From an uncultured Acidimicrobiales bacterium (lineage in GTDB: Bacteria > Actinomycetota > Acidimicrobiia > Acidimicrobiales > DATKAS01), in assembly GCA_963747215.1 (NCBI GenBank), contig CAVVET010000029.1:320115-384114 (forward strand): a DNA stretch of 64,000 bases. Reading direction: 5' to 3'. Positions 4,791 to 42,642 of this stretch are shown piece by piece; the first letter of the stretch is position 1; each line of letters begins with the position of its first letter. The notes below the pieces were generated by a model. The model ran no database searches, was not told the DNA's origin, and worked only from the letters and a program-made list of their open reading frames with translations. The position numbers and the translations under genes were made by a program.

Positions 4791-5896
4791 CGATCCCCCC
4801 CATCACGTCGAGATCCGCGTTGGCGACACAGACCTCGACGCGACACGACTGCGCGACGGCCTCCTCGATCGCATGCTCGACGATGTCAGACGTCTGCTCC
4901 ATCGGCTGGCGGCACGCCGGGCACGAACGGCCGACGCGGCCCAGGTATCCGCACGCGTGGCAGTGCCAACCCGGCGACCGGAAGCCCTGCGACACGAGGA
5001 GGTGCTCGACCCGTCGCTCGACGAGCGCCTCGAGCGTCGCGGTCAATCCGCTCGCTCCTCGACGGCCGGATCCGATCGCGCCCCGAAGTCGCTCGACGAG
5101 CGCCTGCTCCTTGCGACGTTCGACCTCACGTTCGACTTCGAGTGCGACGGTGCGCACCTGCTCGTCGGTCGCGGTCACCGGGACCGCGATGCGCTCGACC
5201 ACACGCTCTCGGAGATATGGGTGCAGGCACCCGACGAGCTCGGCGGCGACGTCGGATGGAGCTCCGACGACGAGATGGTCGAACTGCTGCTCCTGAAAGA
5301 CGTGAAACGCGACATCCGCCGCGTGGCGGAGGTGTTGGTGCTTCACCTCGTTGGTCTGACCGGCGACCCGCGTCTTGACGAGGACGTGTCCTTTCACATC
5401 CTCGCGATGGGTGATCTCATCGAACACCTCGCTGCGATCGATGAGCTCGCCGAGCTCGAAGACCAGCATGCGGGCTCGCTGGCGATCGGCGAGCAGCACG
5501 CCGAAGCGCTCGTACTCGTCCAGCAGGGATTCGAGCTGACGGACGTGCGGGGACGATTCGACCACGACTTGACTCGACACCCGCACAGGAAGCTCGATCA
5601 CCTCCCAGAGACCCGTCGGCGAAGCACGAGAAGAACGCGAGCCCGCGCACACGCGACCGATCGAGGCCACCGCGCACGTGGTTCTCGATGCGCTGCAGGT
5701 CGCGAGCGACGGAGTACGAGTGGTCTCCGTTCAGCTCGGCCCGCGCGCGGCGCAGGAGAAGGTCGAGCTCGTGGAGATAGTCCTGATGCCGAGGGAATCG
5801 CCGACCGTCGACGTCGAGATAGCAACTGGTCACGGGAGCAGTGCGCCCCCTGTATCCGGCAAGGGAGCGAACAGTGTCCGTCGTGAGCGCTGGCAC
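4771..5896 (-). CDS. bacterial eRF1/Vms1-like release-factor-fold protein (baeRF-type) with embedded zinc ribbon; one frame change
   Basis: The N-terminal piece is ORF 5417..5896 (MPALTTDTVRSLAGYRG...LAFFSCFADG). It continues as LWEVIELPVRV... in ORF 4771..5670 after removal of one base in the GGG run at ~5613. C-terminus: WHCHACGYLGRVGRSCPACRQP then VEVCVANADLDVMGGIGALLRY, an eRF1 domain-3-like ending. Confidence 0.6.
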
Positions 5897-5947
5897 GACA
5901 CCTCCTGGGCGGGGGACCGAGGCTGGCGTGACCCTCGGCGCCCGATG

Positions 5948-7759
5948 CTATTCGGACGTCGCTGATCCTGCGTCAGAGATCATCGACAGTCCGCCCCGCT
6001 CGGGAGGCAGCCCCGCCGCCCAGTGCACCACCTGCGGGTCGTCGGTCAGATACACGACGTGCAACGAATCCGCGAGGTGGTCCAACCGAACGAGCAGCGC
6101 ATCGAGGTCGCCCGCCGACACGTGCCGGTACACGTCGTCGAGGACGATCGGGAGGGGATCGGCCAGCGGATGCTGCCCGCGTGCGGCCAACCAGCCGAGA
6201 AGGTGCCGGTCGAGCTCATCGAGCGATCCCCGACCGTCGCCGTCTGCCTGCGGGCTCGGGTCGCTTGCGGTCTCGAGCGCAGGGTCGCCGGTCGATGCAG
6301 CGTCGGTGGTCGATGTGGGCTCGTCCGCGTCGGCAACGAGGCGTGCCTCGGCGAGGCGCTCCTCGGCTTCGTCCTTACGCACGGCGAGCTCTGCGAGCTT
6401 GCCTTCGACGGCGGCGATGTCGGCCGCCGCGAGCTCGTACGCGGCCCGGGCGGCGGCCTCGGCTGCCACTGCGTCGTCGCGGGCTCGCGACGCTGCGACG
6501 AGGCGGGCCTCGGCCGCCCCGTGGCGCTCCCGCCGCCGTACCTCTGCCGGCGTCGGCCGCGGGGGCTGGCGCACCGCCTTGGCTACCTGCTGCGGCGCAG
6601 GCTCAGGCTCAGGTTCGGGCTCAGCAACCGGGACAGGAACGGGTCGCGGTGCGGGTGCGGGCGCCGCCGCCGCCCGCTCCCGTGCCTCACTCAGCTCGCC
6701 CTCCGCACGGAGCAGCTCGGTGCGTGCGATCTCCATCCGGAGCTCTGCGCTCGGATCGGTGGAGCCCATGGACGACCGCAGCAGGAAGTCGCTGTAGGAG
6801 TCGAGTCCGAGCCGATCCAGCACCGCCCGCTCGAAGGACTTCGCCTCGTCGAGCTTGCGGCGAGAGGCGGCGCCCCCAAATCGTCGCTCGGCGCGCTCAT
6901 CGGCATCGAGCACCGCCTCGTGCGCCGCTTCGAGCTCGGCTCGCTGGGCCGCGTCGAGTCGCGCCGGGTTGGCGGCTCGCGCCGCTCGGTCCACTTCGTC
7001 CCGTGCTGCGACGACCTTTGCCTCGGCGGCGTGGACCGCATCGAGCGCAGCCTTCGCGCTCGCTTCGTCGGCGGCGTGACGGGCCGCCTCGTACTCCTCG
7101 TCTCCGTCGATTGCGGCTTCCCGTTCAGGCGAGGCGGACACCGGGGCGTCGTCCTCGAAGAGATCACCTTCGTCCGAGGCGGCCAGCTCATCGGCAAGGT
7201 CATCGTCGCCGACGTCTTCTTCCGGGCTTCCCTCGATCTCGGCGAGTGCGTCAGACGCCGACTCGACGGCACGCTCGGCGGCCTCGCGCGATGCCACCGC
7301 GTCTTCGAGTGACTGCTCGGCTTGTCGGTGAGTCGGGCTGCGTGCGCGTCGCGTTCCTCGGCGGCGCCTCGCAGGGCGACCTCGACCGCGGCCAACACCT
7401 CGGCGGCGGCATCGACCTGCCTGACGGGCGGGTCCACGAGCCCGCTCGTGCTCGACGGCGGCGTCGTCCGCCGTTCGGCGCGGCCGCCCGGCAAGCCCGG
7501 AGGCCTCGGCCGGGAGATCGTCCGCGCCGAGCACCATCTCGACGTCGCCGTCGAGATCGAGAAGGCGCAGTCCCTCGCGGTCGAGATCGAGGATGATGCC
7601 GTGCGCCTCGACGAACCCGGCGGTGCCGTTGCCTCCGCGGAGGGCGGCGGTGAGCGCATCCACGAGCGCTCGGCGCGCCGATTCTTCGGCGTGGACGACG
7701 GCCAGCCTCGGATGCAGCTCTACCGTCACGCCCGGAGAGCGGAGCTCGAGGAGCCTCAT
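5948..7759 (-). CDS. SMC/RecN-like coiled-coil protein with degenerate ATPase head motifs; internal off-frame segment
   Basis: The N-terminus LELRSPGVTVELHPRLAVVHAEESARRALVDAL sits where a P-loop is expected. There is about 400 aa of Ala/Glu/Arg-rich heptad-like sequence plus a PAPAPRPVPVPVAEPEPEPEP linker. The C-terminus PLPIVLDDVYRHVSAGDLDALLVRLDHLADSLHVVYLTDDP is Walker-B/D-loop-like. Residues ~108-145 of the listed ORF are off-frame, and the proper LVDPPVRQVDAAAEVLAAVEVALRGAAEERDAHAARLTDK lies in ORF 6691..7659. Frame changes at ~7442 and ~7327. Confidence 0.5.
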   Translation of the reverse strand: MRLLELRSPGVTVELHPRLAVVHAEESARRALVDALTAALRGGNGTAGFVEAHGIILDLDREGLRLLDLDGDVEMVLGADDLPAEASGLAGRPRRTADDAAVEHERARGPARQAGRCRRRGVGRGRGRPARRRRGTRRARSPTHRQAEQSLEDAVASREAAERAVESASDALAEIEGSPEEDVGDDDLADELAASDEGDLFEDDAPVSASPEREAAIDGDEEYEAARHAADEASAKAALDAVHAAEAKVVAARDEVDRAARAANPARLDAAQRAELEAAHEAVLDADERAERRFGGAASRRKLDEAKSFERAVLDRLGLDSYSDFLLRSSMGSTDPSAELRMEIARTELLRAEGELSEARERAAAAPAPAPRPVPVPVAEPEPEPEPAPQQVAKAVRQPPRPTPAEVRRRERHGAAEARLVAASRARDDAVAAEAAARAAYELAAADIAAVEGKLAELAVRKDEAEERLAEARLVADADEPTSTTDAASTGDPALETASDPSPQADGDGRGSLDELDRHLLGWLAARGQHPLADPLPIVLDDVYRHVSAGDLDALLVRLDHLADSLHVVYLTDDPQVVHWAAGLPPERGGLSMISDAGSATSE

Positions 7760-8025
7760 GACAGCGTGATGTGCTCGATCGGCGGGTCGCCCTGATCGTC
7801 AGCGTCGCGGTCGCCGTTGGCCCTCGTGCCGGTCGGGTCGACGGTCTGCATCACGGCCTTGGCCATTGCTCCGACCGTCACCACCGCGGTGCGAACTGCC
7901 TCGGGGTTCTCGACGACACGCTCAGCGGCCTCGAGGAACGCGCGGGCTGCCGCGATCATCTCCCGTGCGGCCGCCTGCAGGTGGGCGACCCCGTCGTTCG
8001 GTTCGCTGCCGATCGCCTCCCCCAT
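7756..8025 (-). CDS. small hypothetical protein (89 aa)
   Basis: ATG at 8025 preceded by GGGGGAGG. MGEAIGSEPNDGVAHLQAAAREMIAAARAFLEAAERVVENPEAV... Its stop overlaps the start of the coiled-coil gene. I recognise no family. Confidence 0.5.
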   Translation of the reverse strand: MGEAIGSEPNDGVAHLQAAAREMIAAARAFLEAAERVVENPEAVRTAVVTVGAMAKAVMQTVDPTGTRANGDRDADDQGDPPIEHITLS

Positions 8026-8049
8026 CAGGTTGCCTCCCCCATCAGGTTG
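8016..8049 (+). repeat. perfect 17-bp tandem duplication (CCTCCCCCATCAGGTTG x2) at a gene junction
   Basis: Copies at 8016-8032 and 8033-8049. On the coding (-) strand each copy carries TGATG plus GGGGGAGG, that is the ArsA stop, the start of the next gene and its RBS. Confidence 0.9.
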
Positions 8050-9215
8050 CTGCACCGAACACGACCTCGAGGCGGCCACCGTGCACGACCGCATCGGTCA
8101 CTCGTCGACGACGCAGCGAATCCGGCAACAGGATCGCGCGTCGCTGGCCTCCGAGGGTGACAAGCAGCTCATCGCCCTTTCGGCTGAGGGCCACGTCCTC
8201 CCGCTCCGCGAAGGGGAGCTCCAACGCCAACACCCACGCGCCATCCCGTTGGGTCACCTCCAGGACCGATCCTTCGTGCATCGCGACCGAAGGGTCCTCC
8301 TCCCCGAACAGCTCCCGGCCGAGGCCGCGCAGGGCCTCGACGCCGGCCAGCTCACGTTCGGCGAGACGGGCCTTGAGCACGGGGAGGGGGGCGAACGCCT
8401 CTCGGATCTCGGCGAGATGCGCCGCGTGGGTCGCCTTCCAGCTGTCGAACCAGGGATCCGCGACGTCGTCGGGCAGCAATCGGTTCACCACGACCGCGTC
8501 GACTCTGTAGCCGAACAGCGAGAGATAGGTGTAGGTGCGACGCGCCTCGGCGATGACCATACGTTCGGGGTTCACGACGAGGCGGACCGATGTCTGTGCC
8601 GGGTCCGAGAGCACGGACCGCACCGATTCGATGCGGTCGTAGAACCGCTTCGAGCGCGTCGAAGACGTCGCTGTCGGGCACCGGCATCGCCGTCACCAGT
8701 CCGACCGACGGCGCGAGCAGCCTGCTGAGCTGACGGCCGATCGGGAACAGGCGCTCCATCCACCACGACAGGATCTCGGGCAACGACAGCAGCCGGAGCG
8801 TCTCGGCCGTGGGCGCGCAGTCAACGACGATCACGTCCCACTTGCCGGACACGACGTGCTCGTGAAGATCACTCAACGCGAAGACCTCGTCGAGGCCGGG
8901 GAGCACGGAGAGCTCCTCGGCCTCGATGGCCTCGATGCCCGCCCAGCGAAAGAGCGACGCGAGGTAGGCACGCAGCGTCGACCATGAGGTCTCGAGGCGA
9001 GCCTGTGCATCGAGCTGCTGGCCGGAGAGGGAACCTGTGATCACCGTCGGCTCGGGGCCGAGCGCCATGTCGAACGCATCGGCGAGCGAGTGGGCGGGAT
9101 CGGTCGACAACACGAGGGTGCGGTGACCGCAGTCGGCAGCGAGGAGGGCGGTCGCTGCCGCCGTCGTTGTCTTGCCGACTCCCCCTTTGCCGGTGAGCAG
9201 CAGGATCCGCGGCAC
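8042..9215 (-). CDS. ArsA/Get3-family ATPase; one frame change
   Basis: ILLLTGKGGVGKTTTAAATA deviant Walker A, LVLSTDPAHSLADAF, VIVVDCAPTAETLRLL. At ~8645 the frame moves from ORF 8352..9215 to ORF 8042..8623 (DVFDALEAFYDRIESVRSVLSDPAQTSVRLVVNPE... after removing one base of a CC run). Confidence 0.85.
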
Positions 9216-36850: not shown

Positions 36851-37802
36851 GTGAGCTCGTTCGTGATGGCGGCTGTGCAAGCGGCGCCCGTGTTCCTCGA
36901 TCCCGCGGCGTCGACGAAGAAGGCCTGTCAGCTCATCGAAGACGCGTCCGGCGCGTGGTGCGGACCTCGTCGCGTTCAGCGAGACGTGGCTGCCGGGCTA
37001 CCCCCGATGGGTCAACGCGCCGGTGGCGGTCGCGCTCAAGCGAGAGCTGGGTGGTCGATATCTCAGCGCCTCGGTCAGCGTTCCGGGGCCCGAGATCGAC
37101 GAGATCTGCTCGACCGCGCGGCGCTGCGGCGTCGACGTCGTGATGGGCGTCGCCGAGATCGACCCGATCTCGCGGGGCACGACGTACTGCACCCTCGTCT
37201 TCATCAGCGCGGAGGGCGAGCTGCTCGGCAAGCACCGCAAGCTCAAGCCGACCTACGGCGAGCGGTTCGCATGGGGCGAGGGCGACGGCAGCGGGCTGCT
37301 CGTCCACGACCGCCCGTACGCGTCGATCAGCGGCCTCAACTGCTGGGAGCACAACATGGTGCTGCCCGGCTACGCGCTCATGGCGCAGGGCACCCAGGTG
37401 CACGTCGCCGCGTTCCCGGGCTACGAGTCACCCGGCGGAGGCACCCGCCAGACACTGCTCGCACGCGCCTTCGCCTCGCAGGCCGCGGCCTACGTGATGC
37501 TGGTCGGCGGCGTGCTGCGCCCGGATGACATCGCCGACGCCGACGTGCGTGCCGTCGTCGCGTTGCTCCCTCCGCTCACCGGCGACAGCTGCATCGTCGA
37601 TCCGACTGGCGAGGTCATCGCGGGCCCTGCTGTGGCTGAGGAGACCCTGCTCGCGAAGGGCTCGCTCGATGTCGTCCGGACCGCGAAGGCGCTGTGCGAC
37701 GTCGGCGGCCACTACTCCCGTCCCGACGTCTTGCGGCTCGTCATCGATCGTCGACCCGCCCGGCGTCTCGTCGAGCAGATCGAAGAGGGCGATAGCGACT
37801 AG
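36851..37802 (+). CDS. nitrilase/cyanide-hydratase family carbon-nitrogen hydrolase; one frame change
   Basis: MAAVQAAPVFLD... in ORF 36851..37528. After ~36956 it continues GADLVAFSETWLPGYP (Glu), HRKLKPT (Lys), LNCWEH (Cys) in ORF 37023..37802. Confidence 0.85.
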
Positions 37803-38935
37803 CCCTCCGCCTCCGCATCCGGATCCGCGTCGGGACGCTGGGCGCGTTGACGCAACCAGACGAGCACCGCTGCGGCACCGGCGGACGCGGCGACGATCGG
37901 CACCACGGCGCCGCCGCCGCCACCACCCGTCTCACGGGGGGGCCCGGCCGCGACCAGATCCCCGCCCGCAGACGTGGCCTGAGCCGACGCAGTGGTCGAG
38001 GCAGCGGTCGAGGACGTGGAAGCTCCCGTTGTCGTGGCCGCGTCGGAGGAGGCCGCAGCCGTCGAGGATGGGCTCGTGGTCGACGATGCCGCCGTGGTTG
38101 GCGGCGTGGTCGGCGCGGGCGTGGTCGGCGCGGGTGTGCTGCTTGGGGGCGCCGTCGTCGCCGGTGCGGTCGTAGCGGGCGCCGCCGTCGCGGGCGCGGA
38201 CAGCGAGCCGCTGCGCACGGCTTGGACATCGCGTTGGAGTCCGTTGTGCACGTACGGGTAGAACGCGTTGCCGGGACACGCGGTGGTCGACATGTCACGG
38301 TGACCCGCGATCGTCGCGGTCGTCACCGCGGCGCCAACCGGCCAGCGGTTCGATCCACGCGACGTGAAGCTCACCGTCGCGCCGGCTGCCGTCGAGACGC
38401 CGTAGCGCTGAGCAAGCCAGGCCAGCGTGCGGGTGCCAGCGGCGAGCGCGGCGGCGCTCGGTTGCTCGCCCGTGAAGTCACCGATGAAGCAGACCAGTTG
38501 CGCGAACCCTTGACTTCCGCCGGTCGCGTCGGCGGCGACGGGTCCGGCGAGGCTGCCCGCTCTCCCCTCCCAGACGCCGCCCTCGCGGTCGACGAGGAAG
38601 TTGTACGCGATGTCGGGCCACCGCTTCTCGCCGGTGTGGAAGCGATACATCGCCCCGAGCAGGCCGGGCACATCGCTCGCACGATGCTGCGTGCTCGCCG
38701 CCGTGTGATGGACGAGAAGAAACCGCACCTCCTCCGCCGCGAGCGGTCCAACCGGCGGGCCTGGCGCCCAGGCCTCGCGTGGCCAGATCGCGAGTCCGTC
38801 GCCGACAGCGACCGGCGCGGCGGGCAGCGAGAGGGCCTGCGCTCGTCCACCGACTCCGAGCACGGCCGCGCTCGGCGACTGCGGCGCTGCCCACGAGCAC
38901 CGCACGGCGACTGACCCCCAGGGCCGCCGACTCAC
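37799..38935 (-). CDS. PGRP/amidase_2-type N-acetylmuramoyl-L-alanine amidase with low-complexity linker and C-terminal TM anchor
   Basis: FLLVHHTA, DIAYNFLVDREGGVWEGR, GHRDMSTTACPG (Zn ligands). About 100 aa of Ala/Thr/Pro/Ser-rich linker. TM AVVPIVAASAGAAAVLVWL followed by RQRAQRPDADPDAEAEG. GTG 38935 overlaps the regulator stop (GTGA). The N-terminal SRRPWG is only weakly Tat-like. Confidence 0.8.
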   Translation of the reverse strand: MSRRPWGSVAVRCSWAAPQSPSAAVLGVGGRAQALSLPAAPVAVGDGLAIWPREAWAPGPPVGPLAAEEVRFLLVHHTAASTQHRASDVPGLLGAMYRFHTGEKRWPDIAYNFLVDREGGVWEGRAGSLAGPVAADATGGSQGFAQLVCFIGDFTGEQPSAAALAAGTRTLAWLAQRYGVSTAAGATVSFTSRGSNRWPVGAAVTTATIAGHRDMSTTACPGNAFYPYVHNGLQRDVQAVRSGSLSAPATAAPATTAPATTAPPSSTPAPTTPAPTTPPTTAASSTTSPSSTAAASSDAATTTGASTSSTAASTTASAQATSAGGDLVAAGPPRETGGGGGGAVVPIVAASAGAAAVLVWLRQRAQRPDADPDAEAEG

Positions 38936-41900
38936 ACACGAGCGGACGGCCCCGAGTCGACGATGCGAGCCTCTGCTTGTCGCACCAGCATCTGGGTCGA
39001 CGGTTCCGGATCGACGCCGAGGTCGCGCAGCATCTCCTCGACTTCGGCGAGCGCGCGTTGCAGCCCTTCTGCGTCGCGACGCTGCAGCTGCGCCGCGATC
39101 ACCAACCTCCGCGCTCGCTCGGAGTACGGCGCCGCCCCGACCGCCCGGTGAGCACATGCGAGCGCGGCGTCGAACCGCCCCGCGACAAGGCGCAGCTCAC
39201 CGAGCCGAAGCGTGGTGTCGACCAAAGACCGCGCGACTTCCTCCACTGCCGGGACGAGCTCGTGGAGCGCGGTCACGTCTGAGCACGGCTCCCCCCGCCA
39301 CAGGGTGCACGCGGCTTCCAGATGTGCAAGCGCGCGTTCGGCGTCGCCGTCATGCTGTGCGGCCTCGACGCCGGCAACGTGATCACGAAGCTGCCAAAGG
39401 TCCGACTCGATGTACGGACGGCCCGCGATCGCGATCCACTCGCTGTCCATACGCAGCGACAGACAAGGCTCGCCGGCATGGCGATCCGGTTCGAGCAGGT
39501 GTCGAAGGCGAGACAGAGTGACGCGGAGGTTTCGCGCTGCTGACTCGGGATCGAGCTCGGGCCAGATCAGCTCCATCAGCCGTTCCCGCCGGAGCGGCCC
39601 GGCGAGCACGAGGAGCCCGAGGAGCATGCGGACGCGCACCCGGCGGGCCTCGGCTCGGTCGACGACGACGCCGTCGACGGCGATCTGGAGGGGACCGAGG
39701 ACGTCTACCCGCAACGATCCCCGTGTCGGATCTGGTACGAGCCCGCGAAGCGTGCGAGCCCCGGTTGCGACGTCGTCGTCCGCGCTTGTCACGAGCCAGT
39801 CGAACTCGTGCCAGAGCTGCGCTCCCGTCCATTCCGCCAGCTCGCTCACTCGCGCGACCACGCCAGGGCAGCCGGCTGCGCTGGCGCGTGCGAGAACCTC
39901 GGCTGTCCAGGGCAGCGGCATGGCGGTGATGAGCGCGGCAATCTCGGGGAGCTCGCGTTCCGCGCTCGATGCGTCCCGCACGACCATCGAGGAGCAGACG
40001 TGCGACCCGCACGCATCGGTCGTGCGACGGTCCGACGGGGTGGTCGTCCCAGTGCTCACGCACATCCTGGCTGCACACATACGCGATCGCGGGGCCGCGA
40101 CGCAGGAAGACCTCGGACACACGAACAGTGAGAGGAAATGACGCGACGTGAGATGCGAGCTCGGCGACAGCGTCGTCCTCCCGGTGGGCGAGCACGAGGC
40201 GCGCCGCGTTGGCGATGGTGACGATCGCGCTGTCTCGTCCGTCGAGATGTCCGGCGGCGGTCCGGTCGAGAACTGGCCGCATCGCCTCCGCACCGTCCCG
40301 GTCGCCGACCGCCGCGTAGAGAGCGGTGTTGAACGCGGCTCGGAAGAGCTCATCTCGAAGGTTCGTGTCGGGCGGCGGGTCATAGGGCGGTCGGTTCAGC
40401 TTGAACGCTGAGGGGTCACCGGCCGCCCAACGCACCTGGCCGGGCATGCCACTGACGTAGGCGTTGGCCGAGCCGAGCAGGCGATCGCTGACGGGGATCG
40501 CTTCCTCGGCGCGTCCCGCGATGACCAACATCGCGACGTGGAGCCGAGTCACGAGCTCGGTGACCGCGTGGGGTACCTGCGAGAACGGCAGCGCGTCGAT
40601 CTCGGCCAGTGAGCGCTGCACGTCGCCGGAGAGCCCTGCGAGCGCGGCGCTGACGGCCCCAGTGAGAAACCGGAGAAGCGGCTCGCGTCGCGCGCCGGGC
40701 AGCGCCTCGACTTGCTGAGCGAGCATGAACAGCCGTACCTCGTCGCCTCGGCCGTGCGCGATCACGGTGCCCAACGCGAGGGGCACAGCCCGATCCTCGA
40801 CAGGGAACTGCTTGACGAGCACATCGATGTCATGGTCGAGATCGGGATCGTCGAACCGCAACGACTGGCGCACCGCCAACGACAGCAGCTCGAGCTCGGG
40901 CGACACACGGGCCGTCCTCGGCGCCTCCGAGAGCCAGCGCGAGGCGGTCGCGACAGGAAGAGCCCCGAAGCTCGTCCGGACGAGGTTGTAAGCCGCCCGC
41001 TGCAGCGCCTGCTCGTCTCCCCAGCGCAGGGCGAGCCATCCGCCTCGCGCGGGCTCGCTGCGGTCGCGAAGCAGCTCCAGGGCTCGTTGCCTCATCCGCT
41101 GCACGTCATCGGCCGCGAACAGCCGCTCGACCGCGTCTTCCCAGAGCCGATGAGCCGCGAAACGTCCATCGTCCTCGACACGCAACAGCGGCACCCTCGC
41201 GACCAGGCCATCGAGGTCGCCGTCGTCGCCCGCGACGCGATGCAGATCCTCAGCGGACGCGGATCCCATCGTCGCGACTGCAAGGAGCATCCGCTGATCC
41301 CGGGGCGACAGCGCGCCGACGATCTCCTCCCACAGGAACTGGGGCGCCGCGTCGGTGGGCGCGGAAAGCGCGAGCCGCACGAGTGACGGCCACCCGGCGA
41401 GGCCGTCGACGCCGACCGCGTCGCGACCATGGAGGTCGGCCAGCGTCTCGACCTCGCCGACGGTGAACGCGAGCGCGTCGGCACCGATCTCCACGAGCCT
41501 CCCGCCGGCGCGCAGCCGGGCGAGGGGAACAGTCAAAGGCTCACGACTGGCAAGGACGAGGTGCGCGTGCGGGGGCACGTTACGGACGAGGTCGGCGAGC
41601 AGCCGTGCCGACGACGACGCCGGCCGAAGCTCGTGGAGGTCGTCGAGCACCAGGCACACGTCGAGGGGGGCGAAGTCGCCGAACGCGGTCAGCACGGTCT
41701 CGGCGGGCGACCGCCGACCACGGGCGGGCGTACCGCCGAGGGCGGCGGCGATCACCCGCGCCAGCCGCGGGGCATCCTCGTCGCCGGGCTCGCACGACAC
41801 CCACGCGTCGATGCCCCGAGGCTCGACCTGGTTGGCACGGATCGCCTGTCCGAGCAGTGTGCTCTTTCCGAATCCCGCGCCGGCGACGATCGTCGTCACT

Positions 41901-42019
41901 GGGACCTCGAAGCGCCGCGTCAGCTCCTCGATCAAGCGGGCGCGCACCAACTCGCCCGTCAGGGGAAGCGGCGGCGCCGGAGCCCGGCGGGCGGGGACCG
42001 CCCAGTCGTTCTCGGCCAC
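38932..42019 (-). CDS. MalT-type STAND NTPase with C-terminal SARP (winged-helix + BTAD) module; one frame change
   Basis: Walker A GAGFGKSTLLGQ, Walker B CLVLDDLHEL, GWPSLVRLAL, then about 450 aa of helical repeats (ORF 39383..42019). After ~40040 it continues in ORF 38932..40383 with LRVDVLGPLQIAVDG...LIWPELDPESAARNLRVTLSRLRHLL (SARP wHTH) and LWRGEP...PYSERARRLVIAAQL...LGVDPEPST (BTAD). About 1029 aa in total. Confidence 0.75.
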
Positions 42020-42360
42020 TGATCAAAAGCCTAGGCCGCGGCAGGTCGCGACCCGGGTAACGAACGGGTAACGGCGGGATCGGATCGTCCTCGAAATGAA
42101 GACCGAGATCGATCTGCGAGACGACGCGGCCGAGCTACGGGTGGCCGCGCCCGTGGTGCGCGAGGCGCTGGAGGCGGACAGCGCCGCGCCGCCCGTTCAG
42201 CGGCCTGTCGGGCAGCCGGTGAGCCGGCCCGCGCGCGGTACGCGCCGCGACTACGCGTCCTGAGCAGGAGACATTCATGGCCGCCGTGATCGCCGCGGTC
42301 ACCCGAGGGCTCTGGACCTCTGGCTAGCGGGCTCCGACTCCCGCCTGAGCGGCGGGCACA

Positions 42361-42597
42361 ATGGGCGACATGGCGCGCTGGCGGATTCGCAGCTGGGTTC
42401 GTCCCGAAGTGCTTGCCAACAACCACTGCCCCGTGTGCGGGACACCCGTCGTCGTCGGTCCGACGACCCGGCTCGGACGCGCCCTCGCGGGGCCGATGTT
42501 CGCGCCGCCGCCGCAGGCCGAGGTCGCCGGCGCGTGCGCGATCCACGGACGCTTTCCTTGGAACCGCGCCACGAAGCGCCTCCGGGACCAGCAGTGA
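42361..42597 (+). CDS. small zinc-ribbon-like hypothetical protein (78 aa)
   Basis: High third-position G+C, consistent with coding. NHCPVCGTPVVV ... GACAIHGRFPW. Lies 45 nt upstream of the hydrolase gene on the same strand. Confidence 0.35.
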   Translation: MGDMARWRIRSWVRPEVLANNHCPVCGTPVVVGPTTRLGRALAGPMFAPPPQAEVAGACAIHGRFPWNRATKRLRDQQ

Positions 42598-42642
42598 CCC
42601 GGCTCCCGCCGCCATACTGCTCGCCATCGAGGAGGCGCAGCA

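Follow-up and report, generated by a model that had tools for sequence, protein, structure and literature searches.

We analysed a 64,000-nucleotide stretch of DNA (hereafter the window) from an uncultured Acidimicrobiales bacterium (assembly GCA_963747215.1, contig CAVVET010000029.1, positions 320,115 to 384,114). On the minus strand of the window, a gene for a large transcriptional regulator, starting at 42019 and ending at 38932, is followed by a gene for an amidase of the PGRP type (37799..38939), whose start overlaps the regulator stop. A small gene is encoded divergently on the plus strand (42096..42327), and a pair of GTTACCC heptamers lies in the region between it and the regulator.

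The open reading frame (ORF) list contained three minus-strand frames for the regulator and amidase (39383-42019, 38932-40383, and 37799-39157). Frame 39383-42019 encodes a credible protein for about 680 residues and then Arg/Pro-rich noise; frame 38932-40383 begins with noise and becomes credible from about 39975 downwards. The coding sequence for regulator residues 1-681 occupies the first of these frames from the GTG start at 42019 (39977..42019, minus strand) and showed 84% identity to residues 2-684 of P0001, the closest relative (84% identity), which a sister species encodes as a single intact ORF of 1028 residues on a contig of 3.37 Mb (locus L001). By alignment to P0001, residues 682-1028 and the TGA stop at 38934-38932 lie in the second frame (38932..39975, minus strand), and this part was 78-80% identical to P0001 residues 685-1024. 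Alignment of the window with L001 revealed exactly one net frame-changing gap within the regulator, a 1-nt gap in L001 that places one extra base in or beside a run of G (gcGGGac) at 39975..39980. Omitting base 39976 gave a conceptual regulator of 1028 residues, equal in length to P0001. The initial annotation had proposed one gene running across a frame change at ~40040; the frame change is present, about 60 nt away at ~39975-39980, and the single gene was supported by the intact sister ORF and by the ratio of nonsynonymous to synonymous divergence (dN/dS) from the sister gene, which was 0.11 for the part before the break and 0.16 for the part after it, with no stops.

Compared base by base with the sister genome, five different genes spread over 9 kb of the window each contain an isolated one-base insertion (36949, 38875, 39980, 43148, and 45893). 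The additional base was always on the window side, mostly beside an identical G or C, and with the frame-broken small gene taken into account at least five or six genes are affected. Of 18 proteins that the sister genome encodes over 19 kb of shared synteny, 6 matched the window in two frames, and a paralogue of the regulator elsewhere in the source genome (contig C1:182125-185120, 32-48% identical) was spread over three reading frames. The source assembly is a metagenome-assembled genome (MAG) of 41 contigs and 4.69 Mb with an estimated completeness of only 74.8%. Its relatives are 'MFD' MAGs, and the related MAGs come from a Nanopore-only project with one round of Medaka polishing (PMC12313526). 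The truncated members of the regulator family came from ENA and NCBI assemblies, not from JGI.

Because the sister ORF is intact, neighbouring genes carry similar one-base insertions, and dN/dS is low on both sides, the stretch from 42019 to 38932 is very probably one regulator gene with an artefactual break, for which an insertion error of long-read assembly is the probable source. A real frameshift would mean either a fresh pseudogene or two products, a STAND sensor of ~690 residues without an output and a separately initiated SARP protein. Two points favour such a reading over an artefact: the break is present in the assembly as given, and split annotations occur for other family members too, for example P0004 together with a 273-residue BTAD ORF in L100. 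The split homologues, however, likewise come from long-read MAGs. A shift confined to this gene also accords poorly with the insertions in its neighbours, always on the window side, and with the 6 of 18 split syntenic genes; constraint downstream of the break (dN/dS 0.16, no stops) and the lack of any evident in-frame start codon with a ribosome-binding site near the start of the SARP module speak against it too, and we regard it as quite improbable. Programmed +1 frameshifting was also considered and rejected, as neighbouring genes unrelated to the regulator carry like insertions and its counterpart in the sister genome is a plain ORF. One-base insertions are frequent in this assembly, and its split ORFs are best treated as artefacts unless the reads show otherwise.

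To define the domains of the regulator, a 16-sequence family profile was searched against PDB sequences, and an AlphaFold2 model of P0001 (mean predicted local distance difference test score, pLDDT, 84.7) was searched with Foldseek. The model consists of an alpha/beta NTPase, a helical region, a small beta-containing winged helix, and a helical BTAD domain. Residues ~13-337 (41009..41983, minus strand) form a MalT-type nucleotide-binding oligomerization domain (NOD), as judged from profile, Foldseek, and invariant columns: the profile matched the MalT NOD (8BOB) with an E value of 4e-25 over residues 13-337, and 8BOB was also the first-ranked Foldseek match. The Walker A (GAGFGKST) and Walker B (CLVLDDLHE) motifs are at residues 47 and 122, followed by GWPSLVRLAL at residue 209 and a family-invariant His in AHRLWED at residue 290. 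In family-level models the same region scored below cut-off, with 38.6-47.5 bits for the NCBIfam MalT equivalog (cut-off 537; residues 17-198) and 25.5 bits for Pfam AAA_22. Residues ~338-764 (39727..41008, minus strand), which contain the frame break, make up an all-helical sensor according to the AlphaFold2 secondary structure; helices run uninterrupted from ~300 to 760 in the P0001 model with pLDDT mostly 85-97. The second Foldseek match, after 8BOB, was the STAND-TPR protein 6MFV.

The C-terminal part (38977..39726, minus strand) was assigned from Pfam, profile, and Foldseek results to a SARP module made of an OmpR-type winged helix (~765-870) and a BTAD domain (873-1014). Pfam BTAD scored 62 bits in the second frame against a cut-off of 22.1, and Trans_reg_C stayed below its cut-off (18.6 against 26.2 bits). 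The profile matched both parts together, residues 764-1011, in EmbR (2FEZ, E 4.5e-16) and AfsR (8HVR, E 1.3e-11), and Foldseek matched EmbR as well as AfsR (8K60/8HVR, target TM-scores 0.76-0.77). No match to a GerE/LuxR helix-turn-helix was found at the C-terminus with Pfam or NCBIfam, and the AfsR equivalog of NCBIfam gave 36.5 bits against a cut-off of 1430. The regulator is thus predicted, from sequence and model together, to be a MalT/LAL chassis in which the LuxR helix-turn-helix has been swapped for a SARP module. The order proposed in the initial annotation, a MalT-like NTPase first and a SARP winged helix with BTAD last, was borne out by the profile and Foldseek matches and by the motifs. 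Its description as an inverted AfsR was a poor frame of reference, because the NTPase belongs to the MalT clade, not to NB-ARC, and MalT/LAL proteins normally have their output at the C-terminus.

This architecture, which had been thought unusual, proved to be common. A protein search returned 577 matches, nearly all of ~1000-1050 residues with AAA_22 and BTAD, carrying pipeline names such as 'BTAD domain-containing putative transcriptional regulator', 'LuxR family ... MalT', 'DNA-binding SARP family', and 'MalT/SARP'. Relatives of the regulator were found at 214 loci in species-representative genomes, including Acidimicrobiia MAGs and the cultured genera Actinoplanes, Micromonospora, Lentzea, Saccharothrix, and Amycolatopsis. 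Literature searches on the C-terminal SARP architecture found no paper describing it. The family is common in databases and apparently unstudied in the searched literature, and the regulator in the window is an ordinary member.

Clustering of neighbouring genes revealed lineage-specific partners only, with no family-wide partner. In seven Acidimicrobiia loci (L017, L020, L030, L032, L035, L039, and L093), a pyruvoyl-dependent arginine decarboxylase gene lies upstream in divergent orientation, and in Lentzea loci L050-L068 an S-adenosylmethionine (SAM) synthetase gene lies upstream on the same strand; these neighbours may point to a connection of those branches with polyamine or SAM metabolism. 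About 20 Lentzea/Saccharothrix loci (e.g., L050-L084) have a conserved convergent downstream gene for a protein of 160-180 residues with RTX (HemolysinCabind) repeats. At the locus of the 52%-identical relative (L102), the divergent neighbour encodes a PG_binding_1 protein (1091-1924), and a second full-length paralogue follows in tandem (5332-8328).

Comparative analysis of the 76 bp that separate the GTG of the regulator (42019) from the divergent small gene identified a candidate operator at 42055..42072 (minus strand), composed of two GTTACCC heptamers 11 nt apart from start to start, with four nucleotides (N4) between them. The pair is kept in the sister genome, and GTTACCC-N4-GTTACC also occurs upstream of the relatives with 57%, 55%, and 52% identity (L099-L102). 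When perfect 7-mer repeats were counted upstream of 76 species-representative loci, spacing 11 was found in 14, spacings 18 and 19 in 9 and 6, and most other spacings in 0-3. The degenerate pair G[CT]TA[ACG]C occurred at spacing 11 in 12 of the 76 upstream regions and at no other spacing between 6 and 25; in the whole 4.69-Mb source assembly it was found once, at the site upstream of the regulator. In L095, a related locus that has lost the regulator, the heptamers carry TGA in place of TTA and have a spacing of 12. No GTTACCC-type operator was found in the 300 nt upstream of the contig C1 paralogue.

A TAGGCT hexamer lies at 42028..42033 (minus strand), with the operator 21 nt above it and the GTG start 8 nt below it; for the conserved TAGG(C/G)T, the distance to the start codon is 7-9 nt. 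No third in-phase heptamer is present between the operator and this element. The actinobacterial -10 consensus is TANNNT, and TAGGCT is likely to be the -10 element on that basis; CCTAGG(C/G)T is common to the window, L001, and L095, and a similar TAGGGT is found in L101. Since this -10-like element is so close to the start codon, the arrangement suggests a leaderless or near-leaderless regulator transcript.

We therefore propose the GTTACCC pair as a candidate, family-specific operator newly found here, and the branch of the family to which the window regulator belongs (Acidimicrobiia and Micromonosporaceae) appears to have its own heptamer, CGTTAsC. Several observations weigh against this assignment. 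Classical SARP boxes lie ~8 nt from the -10, unlike the 21 nt at this locus. The orientation of the operator differs in L024 and L102 (opposite and ~205 nt upstream in L102), which leaves the controlled promoter uncertain, and the -10 of the small gene is poor (GATCGT). Moreover, only 12 of the 76 species-representative loci carry the motif, so that other branches must use other sites.

The divergent small gene (42096..42327, plus strand) encodes about 70 residues and is frame-broken near 42245-42260, as a 69-residue gene of L001 matches it in two frames. The C-terminus of its product reads ...QETFMAAVIAAVTRGLWTSG. A homologous gene of 71 residues is divergent from the 57%-identical regulator in L099/L100, and 22-23 nt separate the small-gene ATG from the operator in L099/L100 as well as in L001 and the window. 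The C-terminal motif RExF(M/L)AA..A..T.G is common to both branches; among all 79 loci it was found only in L001/L016 and L099/L100, the nearest branch to the window. The small gene, not the amidase, is co-inherited with the regulator, which is a second new observation here. Between the small gene and the next gene, which encodes an Abhydrolase_10 protein, there is a 75-residue ORF with a zinc-ribbon-like CPVC...C..H pattern (42371-42598, plus strand); this region is kept in L095, which has lost both the small gene and the regulator.

The amidase gene (37799..38939, minus strand) was delimited with Pfam and the N-termini of its orthologues and has a conceptual length of 379 residues. A twin-arginine translocation (Tat) signal (38939 to ~38834, by motif reading) precedes the Amidase_2/PGRP domain (38734-38267, Pfam), and a low-complexity linker of ~100 residues, rich in Ala, Thr, Pro, and Ser, is followed by a C-terminal transmembrane helix (37909-37853, from motif coordinates), all on the minus strand. 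The assignment as a PGRP-type amidase held: Amidase_2 scored 50.8 bits against a cut-off of 26, and the closest PDB matches were animal PGRPs (E 1e-16). A comparison with NCBIfam yielded no family for the protein. The motifs FLLVHHT, AYNFLVD, IAGHRD, and ACPG are intact, and in the corresponding HHT/Y/GHRD/CPG pattern we take the residues to be the zinc ligands (His, His, and Cys) and the catalytic Tyr, from general knowledge of the family.

Orthologues (P0122, P0127-P0129) begin with MCES(A/T)(V/A)HG(I/V)SRRAVLAGGAAVASAAVLGVGGRA(H/N)A(L/V)S, and their N-termini read SRRAVLAGGAAVASAAVLGVGGRAHA. In the window, the signal-peptide codons are out of the main amidase frame because of a second one-base insertion at 38874..38875 (minus strand), identified in alignments with L001 (GTCGCCGAG versus GTCGCGAG). 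With this indel set aside, the N-terminus reads VCESAALGVSRRAVLVGSAAVASAAVLGVGGRAQA followed by LS, in agreement with the Tat pattern of S/T-R-R-x-F/V-L, a hydrophobic stretch, and an AxA site. The orthologues carry a textbook twin-arginine signal, and the protein is predicted to be exported by the Tat pathway. The start shared with the orthologues is GTG at 38939-38937, replaced by ATG in relatives, and it overlaps the regulator TGA (38934-38932) in the 8-nt sequence GTGTGTGA (38932..38939, minus strand), whose counterpart in the sister genome is ATGTGTGA. A stop/start overlap between the two genes had been annotated before, and one exists; the GTGA start chosen then ('VSRRPWGS...') lies in the wrong frame.

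Across many Acidimicrobiia the catalytic domain of the amidase shows 60-94% identity, a degree of conservation well above that of the regulator. At synonymous sites, divergence from the sister genome was ~0.39 for the amidase (38201-38872) and 0.82-0.85 for the regulator (38935-42019). The lower value for the amidase could possibly reflect stronger codon constraint or a differing history such as recombination. The sister amidase P0128 (L001, 11853 onwards) has an Arg/Pro-rich nonsense C-terminus from a frameshift in the linker, and the near-identical P0129 reads through to the transmembrane anchor; because only one of the two is frameshifted, the sister MAG evidently also holds indel errors.

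To evaluate whether regulator and amidase form a conserved pair, we scanned the nearest called genes of the family loci with Pfam (72 downstream and 61 upstream, with the L016 amidase entered by hand). Amidase_2 was found in 1 of the 72 downstream genes and in none of the 61 upstream genes. In tblastn searches the amidase stood beside a regulator in the sister genome only, and the next-closest regulators, at 57%, 55%, 52%, and 50% identity, have no amidase neighbour. Conversely, amidase orthologues with 94%, 78%, and 76% identity (L095, L096, and L097) lie in the same synteny, Abhydrolase_10 (-), amidase (+), and CN_hydrolase (-), without a regulator, and an orthologue with 61% identity (L098) lies in another location, also without one.

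Traces of the regulator remain at the locus of the 94%-identical orthologue. L095 retains the operator region, the -10, the GTG, and the first 11 regulator codons (VTDNDWAVAAR) upstream of the amidase, joined in frame to the last five regulator codons and the same ATGTGTGA overlap to give a 16-codon ORF, and it also lacks the divergent small gene. Since the retained N-terminal codons resemble the N-terminus of regulators without an amidase neighbour (P0002), L095 appears to have lost the regulator body by deletion. The pairing thus seems to have arisen once in a small clade and to have been undone already in one of its members, and the adjacency of regulator and amidase reads as a recent accident of one small lineage, not as a dedicated lysis device.

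Taken together, the account that we favour, with a probability of roughly three in four, is that the locus encodes a single activator of the MalT/SARP type whose break is artefactual and whose amidase neighbour is accidental. By analogy with MalT, some ligand together with ATP would free the NOD from a closed state, and the opened regulator would multimerise. Its SARP modules may then bind head-to-tail on the two GTTACCC heptamers (42055-42072), as in AfsR complexes, and activate the regulator's own near-leaderless promoter, the divergent gene of ~70 residues, or both. In the small clade of the window, the cassette of small gene, operator, and regulator would have come to lie ahead of an ancestral amidase. 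Given the 8-nt overlap of its start with the regulator stop, the amidase is probably co-transcribed by read-through and translationally coupled via termination-reinitiation, a coupling that we interpret as a by-product of the gene arrangement and not as an evolved regulator-hydrolase module. On the other side of the balance, ligand response, multimerisation, and DNA binding are all carried over from known systems, and the overlap is kept in both genomes that have the pair and again behind the 16-codon ORF of L095, so that amidase expression may really depend on the upstream unit.

The initial annotation had suggested that the pair could be a regulated autolysis or wall-remodelling module, in which a signal would raise transcription of the operon and translational coupling would raise amidase output. 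The preserved overlap would suit such a design, as would the absence of a Shine-Dalgarno sequence ahead of the amidase start, an operator unique in the genome, for which the operon may be the only target, and the coupled upstream ORF that L095 keeps after regulator loss. A purpose-built pair, however, is hard to reconcile with its presence at 1 of 72 family loci and its absence beside the regulators at 57%, 55%, 52%, and 50% identity, with an amidase that is far more conserved than its regulator and stands alone in close relatives, with the deletion of the regulator but not of the amidase in a close relative, and with a small divergent gene that travels with the regulator in the amidase's place; such a module is unlikely. 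A related reading is that, in this one Acidimicrobiales lineage, a mobile cassette made up of the small-protein gene, the operator, and the STAND-SARP regulator captured a housekeeping Tat-exported amidase behind it, which became dependent on the cassette promoter and on termination-reinitiation at GTGTGTGA, the 16-codon ORF of L095 being kept precisely to preserve the coupling. We consider this doubtful; if it were true, wall hydrolysis would have become signal-gated. The infection-triggered lysis that had also been raised, as pure speculation, in which an anti-phage STAND protein resembling Avs would lyse the cell through the amidase, has a probability close to nil. A STAND NTPase does adjoin a lytic enzyme, and Avs4 appeared at Foldseek rank 14, as expected of any STAND protein. 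PADLOC, however, reported no defence-system match, with only a trivial P-loop match for the regulator (HEC-04, E 3e-4); the amidase and the small protein had no match at all. The neighbouring genes are metabolic, with no defence-island context, the predicted output is a transcription-activation module with a candidate operator, and the amidase resembles a conserved, housekeeping-type exported enzyme.

The locus is of modest importance and opens no new kind of system. It does offer a clean natural case in which genes were captured and lost next to a conserved amidase, including an in-frame deletion with a coupled mini-ORF left behind. Hundreds of Actinomycetota, some of them cultivable (Actinoplanes, Micromonospora, Lentzea, and Saccharothrix), pair a MalT/LAL chassis with a SARP output, and CGTTAsC-N4-CGTTAsC provides a concrete candidate DNA target for one branch of this family.

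Like MalT, the regulator has an N-terminal NOD with Walker A and B motifs, a helical sensor, and a C-terminal DNA-binding output, in the same order; the output of MalT is a LuxR-type helix-turn-helix, whereas a SARP winged helix with BTAD is found here. EmbR of Mycobacterium tuberculosis, which combines a SARP module with an FHA domain and is controlled by phosphorylation, gave the best solved match to the winged helix and BTAD part, but it ends in the FHA domain and has no NTPase, which the window regulator does have. With AfsR and other large SARPs the regulator shares the type of DNA-binding and activation module and its connection to a STAND switch. SARPs bind direct heptamer repeats with 11-bp periodicity near the -35 region, and the candidate GTTACCC pair would, by its spacing, be a site of this expected type. 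In those proteins, however, the SARP module is N-terminal and is followed by an NB-ARC NOD and TPRs, whereas here it is C-terminal (~765-1014 of 1028) behind a MalT-clade NOD. The amidase carries the HHT...Y...GHRD...CPG motifs of PGRP/T7-lysozyme-type amidases and appears to be an exported bacterial variant, distinguished by its Tat signal, a linker of ~100 residues, and a C-terminal membrane anchor. In the published SARP classes (small, medium, large, and SARP-LAL), the SARP module is always N-terminal (bioRxiv 10.64898/2026.09.02.748808). SARP classifications in print thus cover N-terminal modules only, and the C-terminal family to which this regulator belongs falls outside them.

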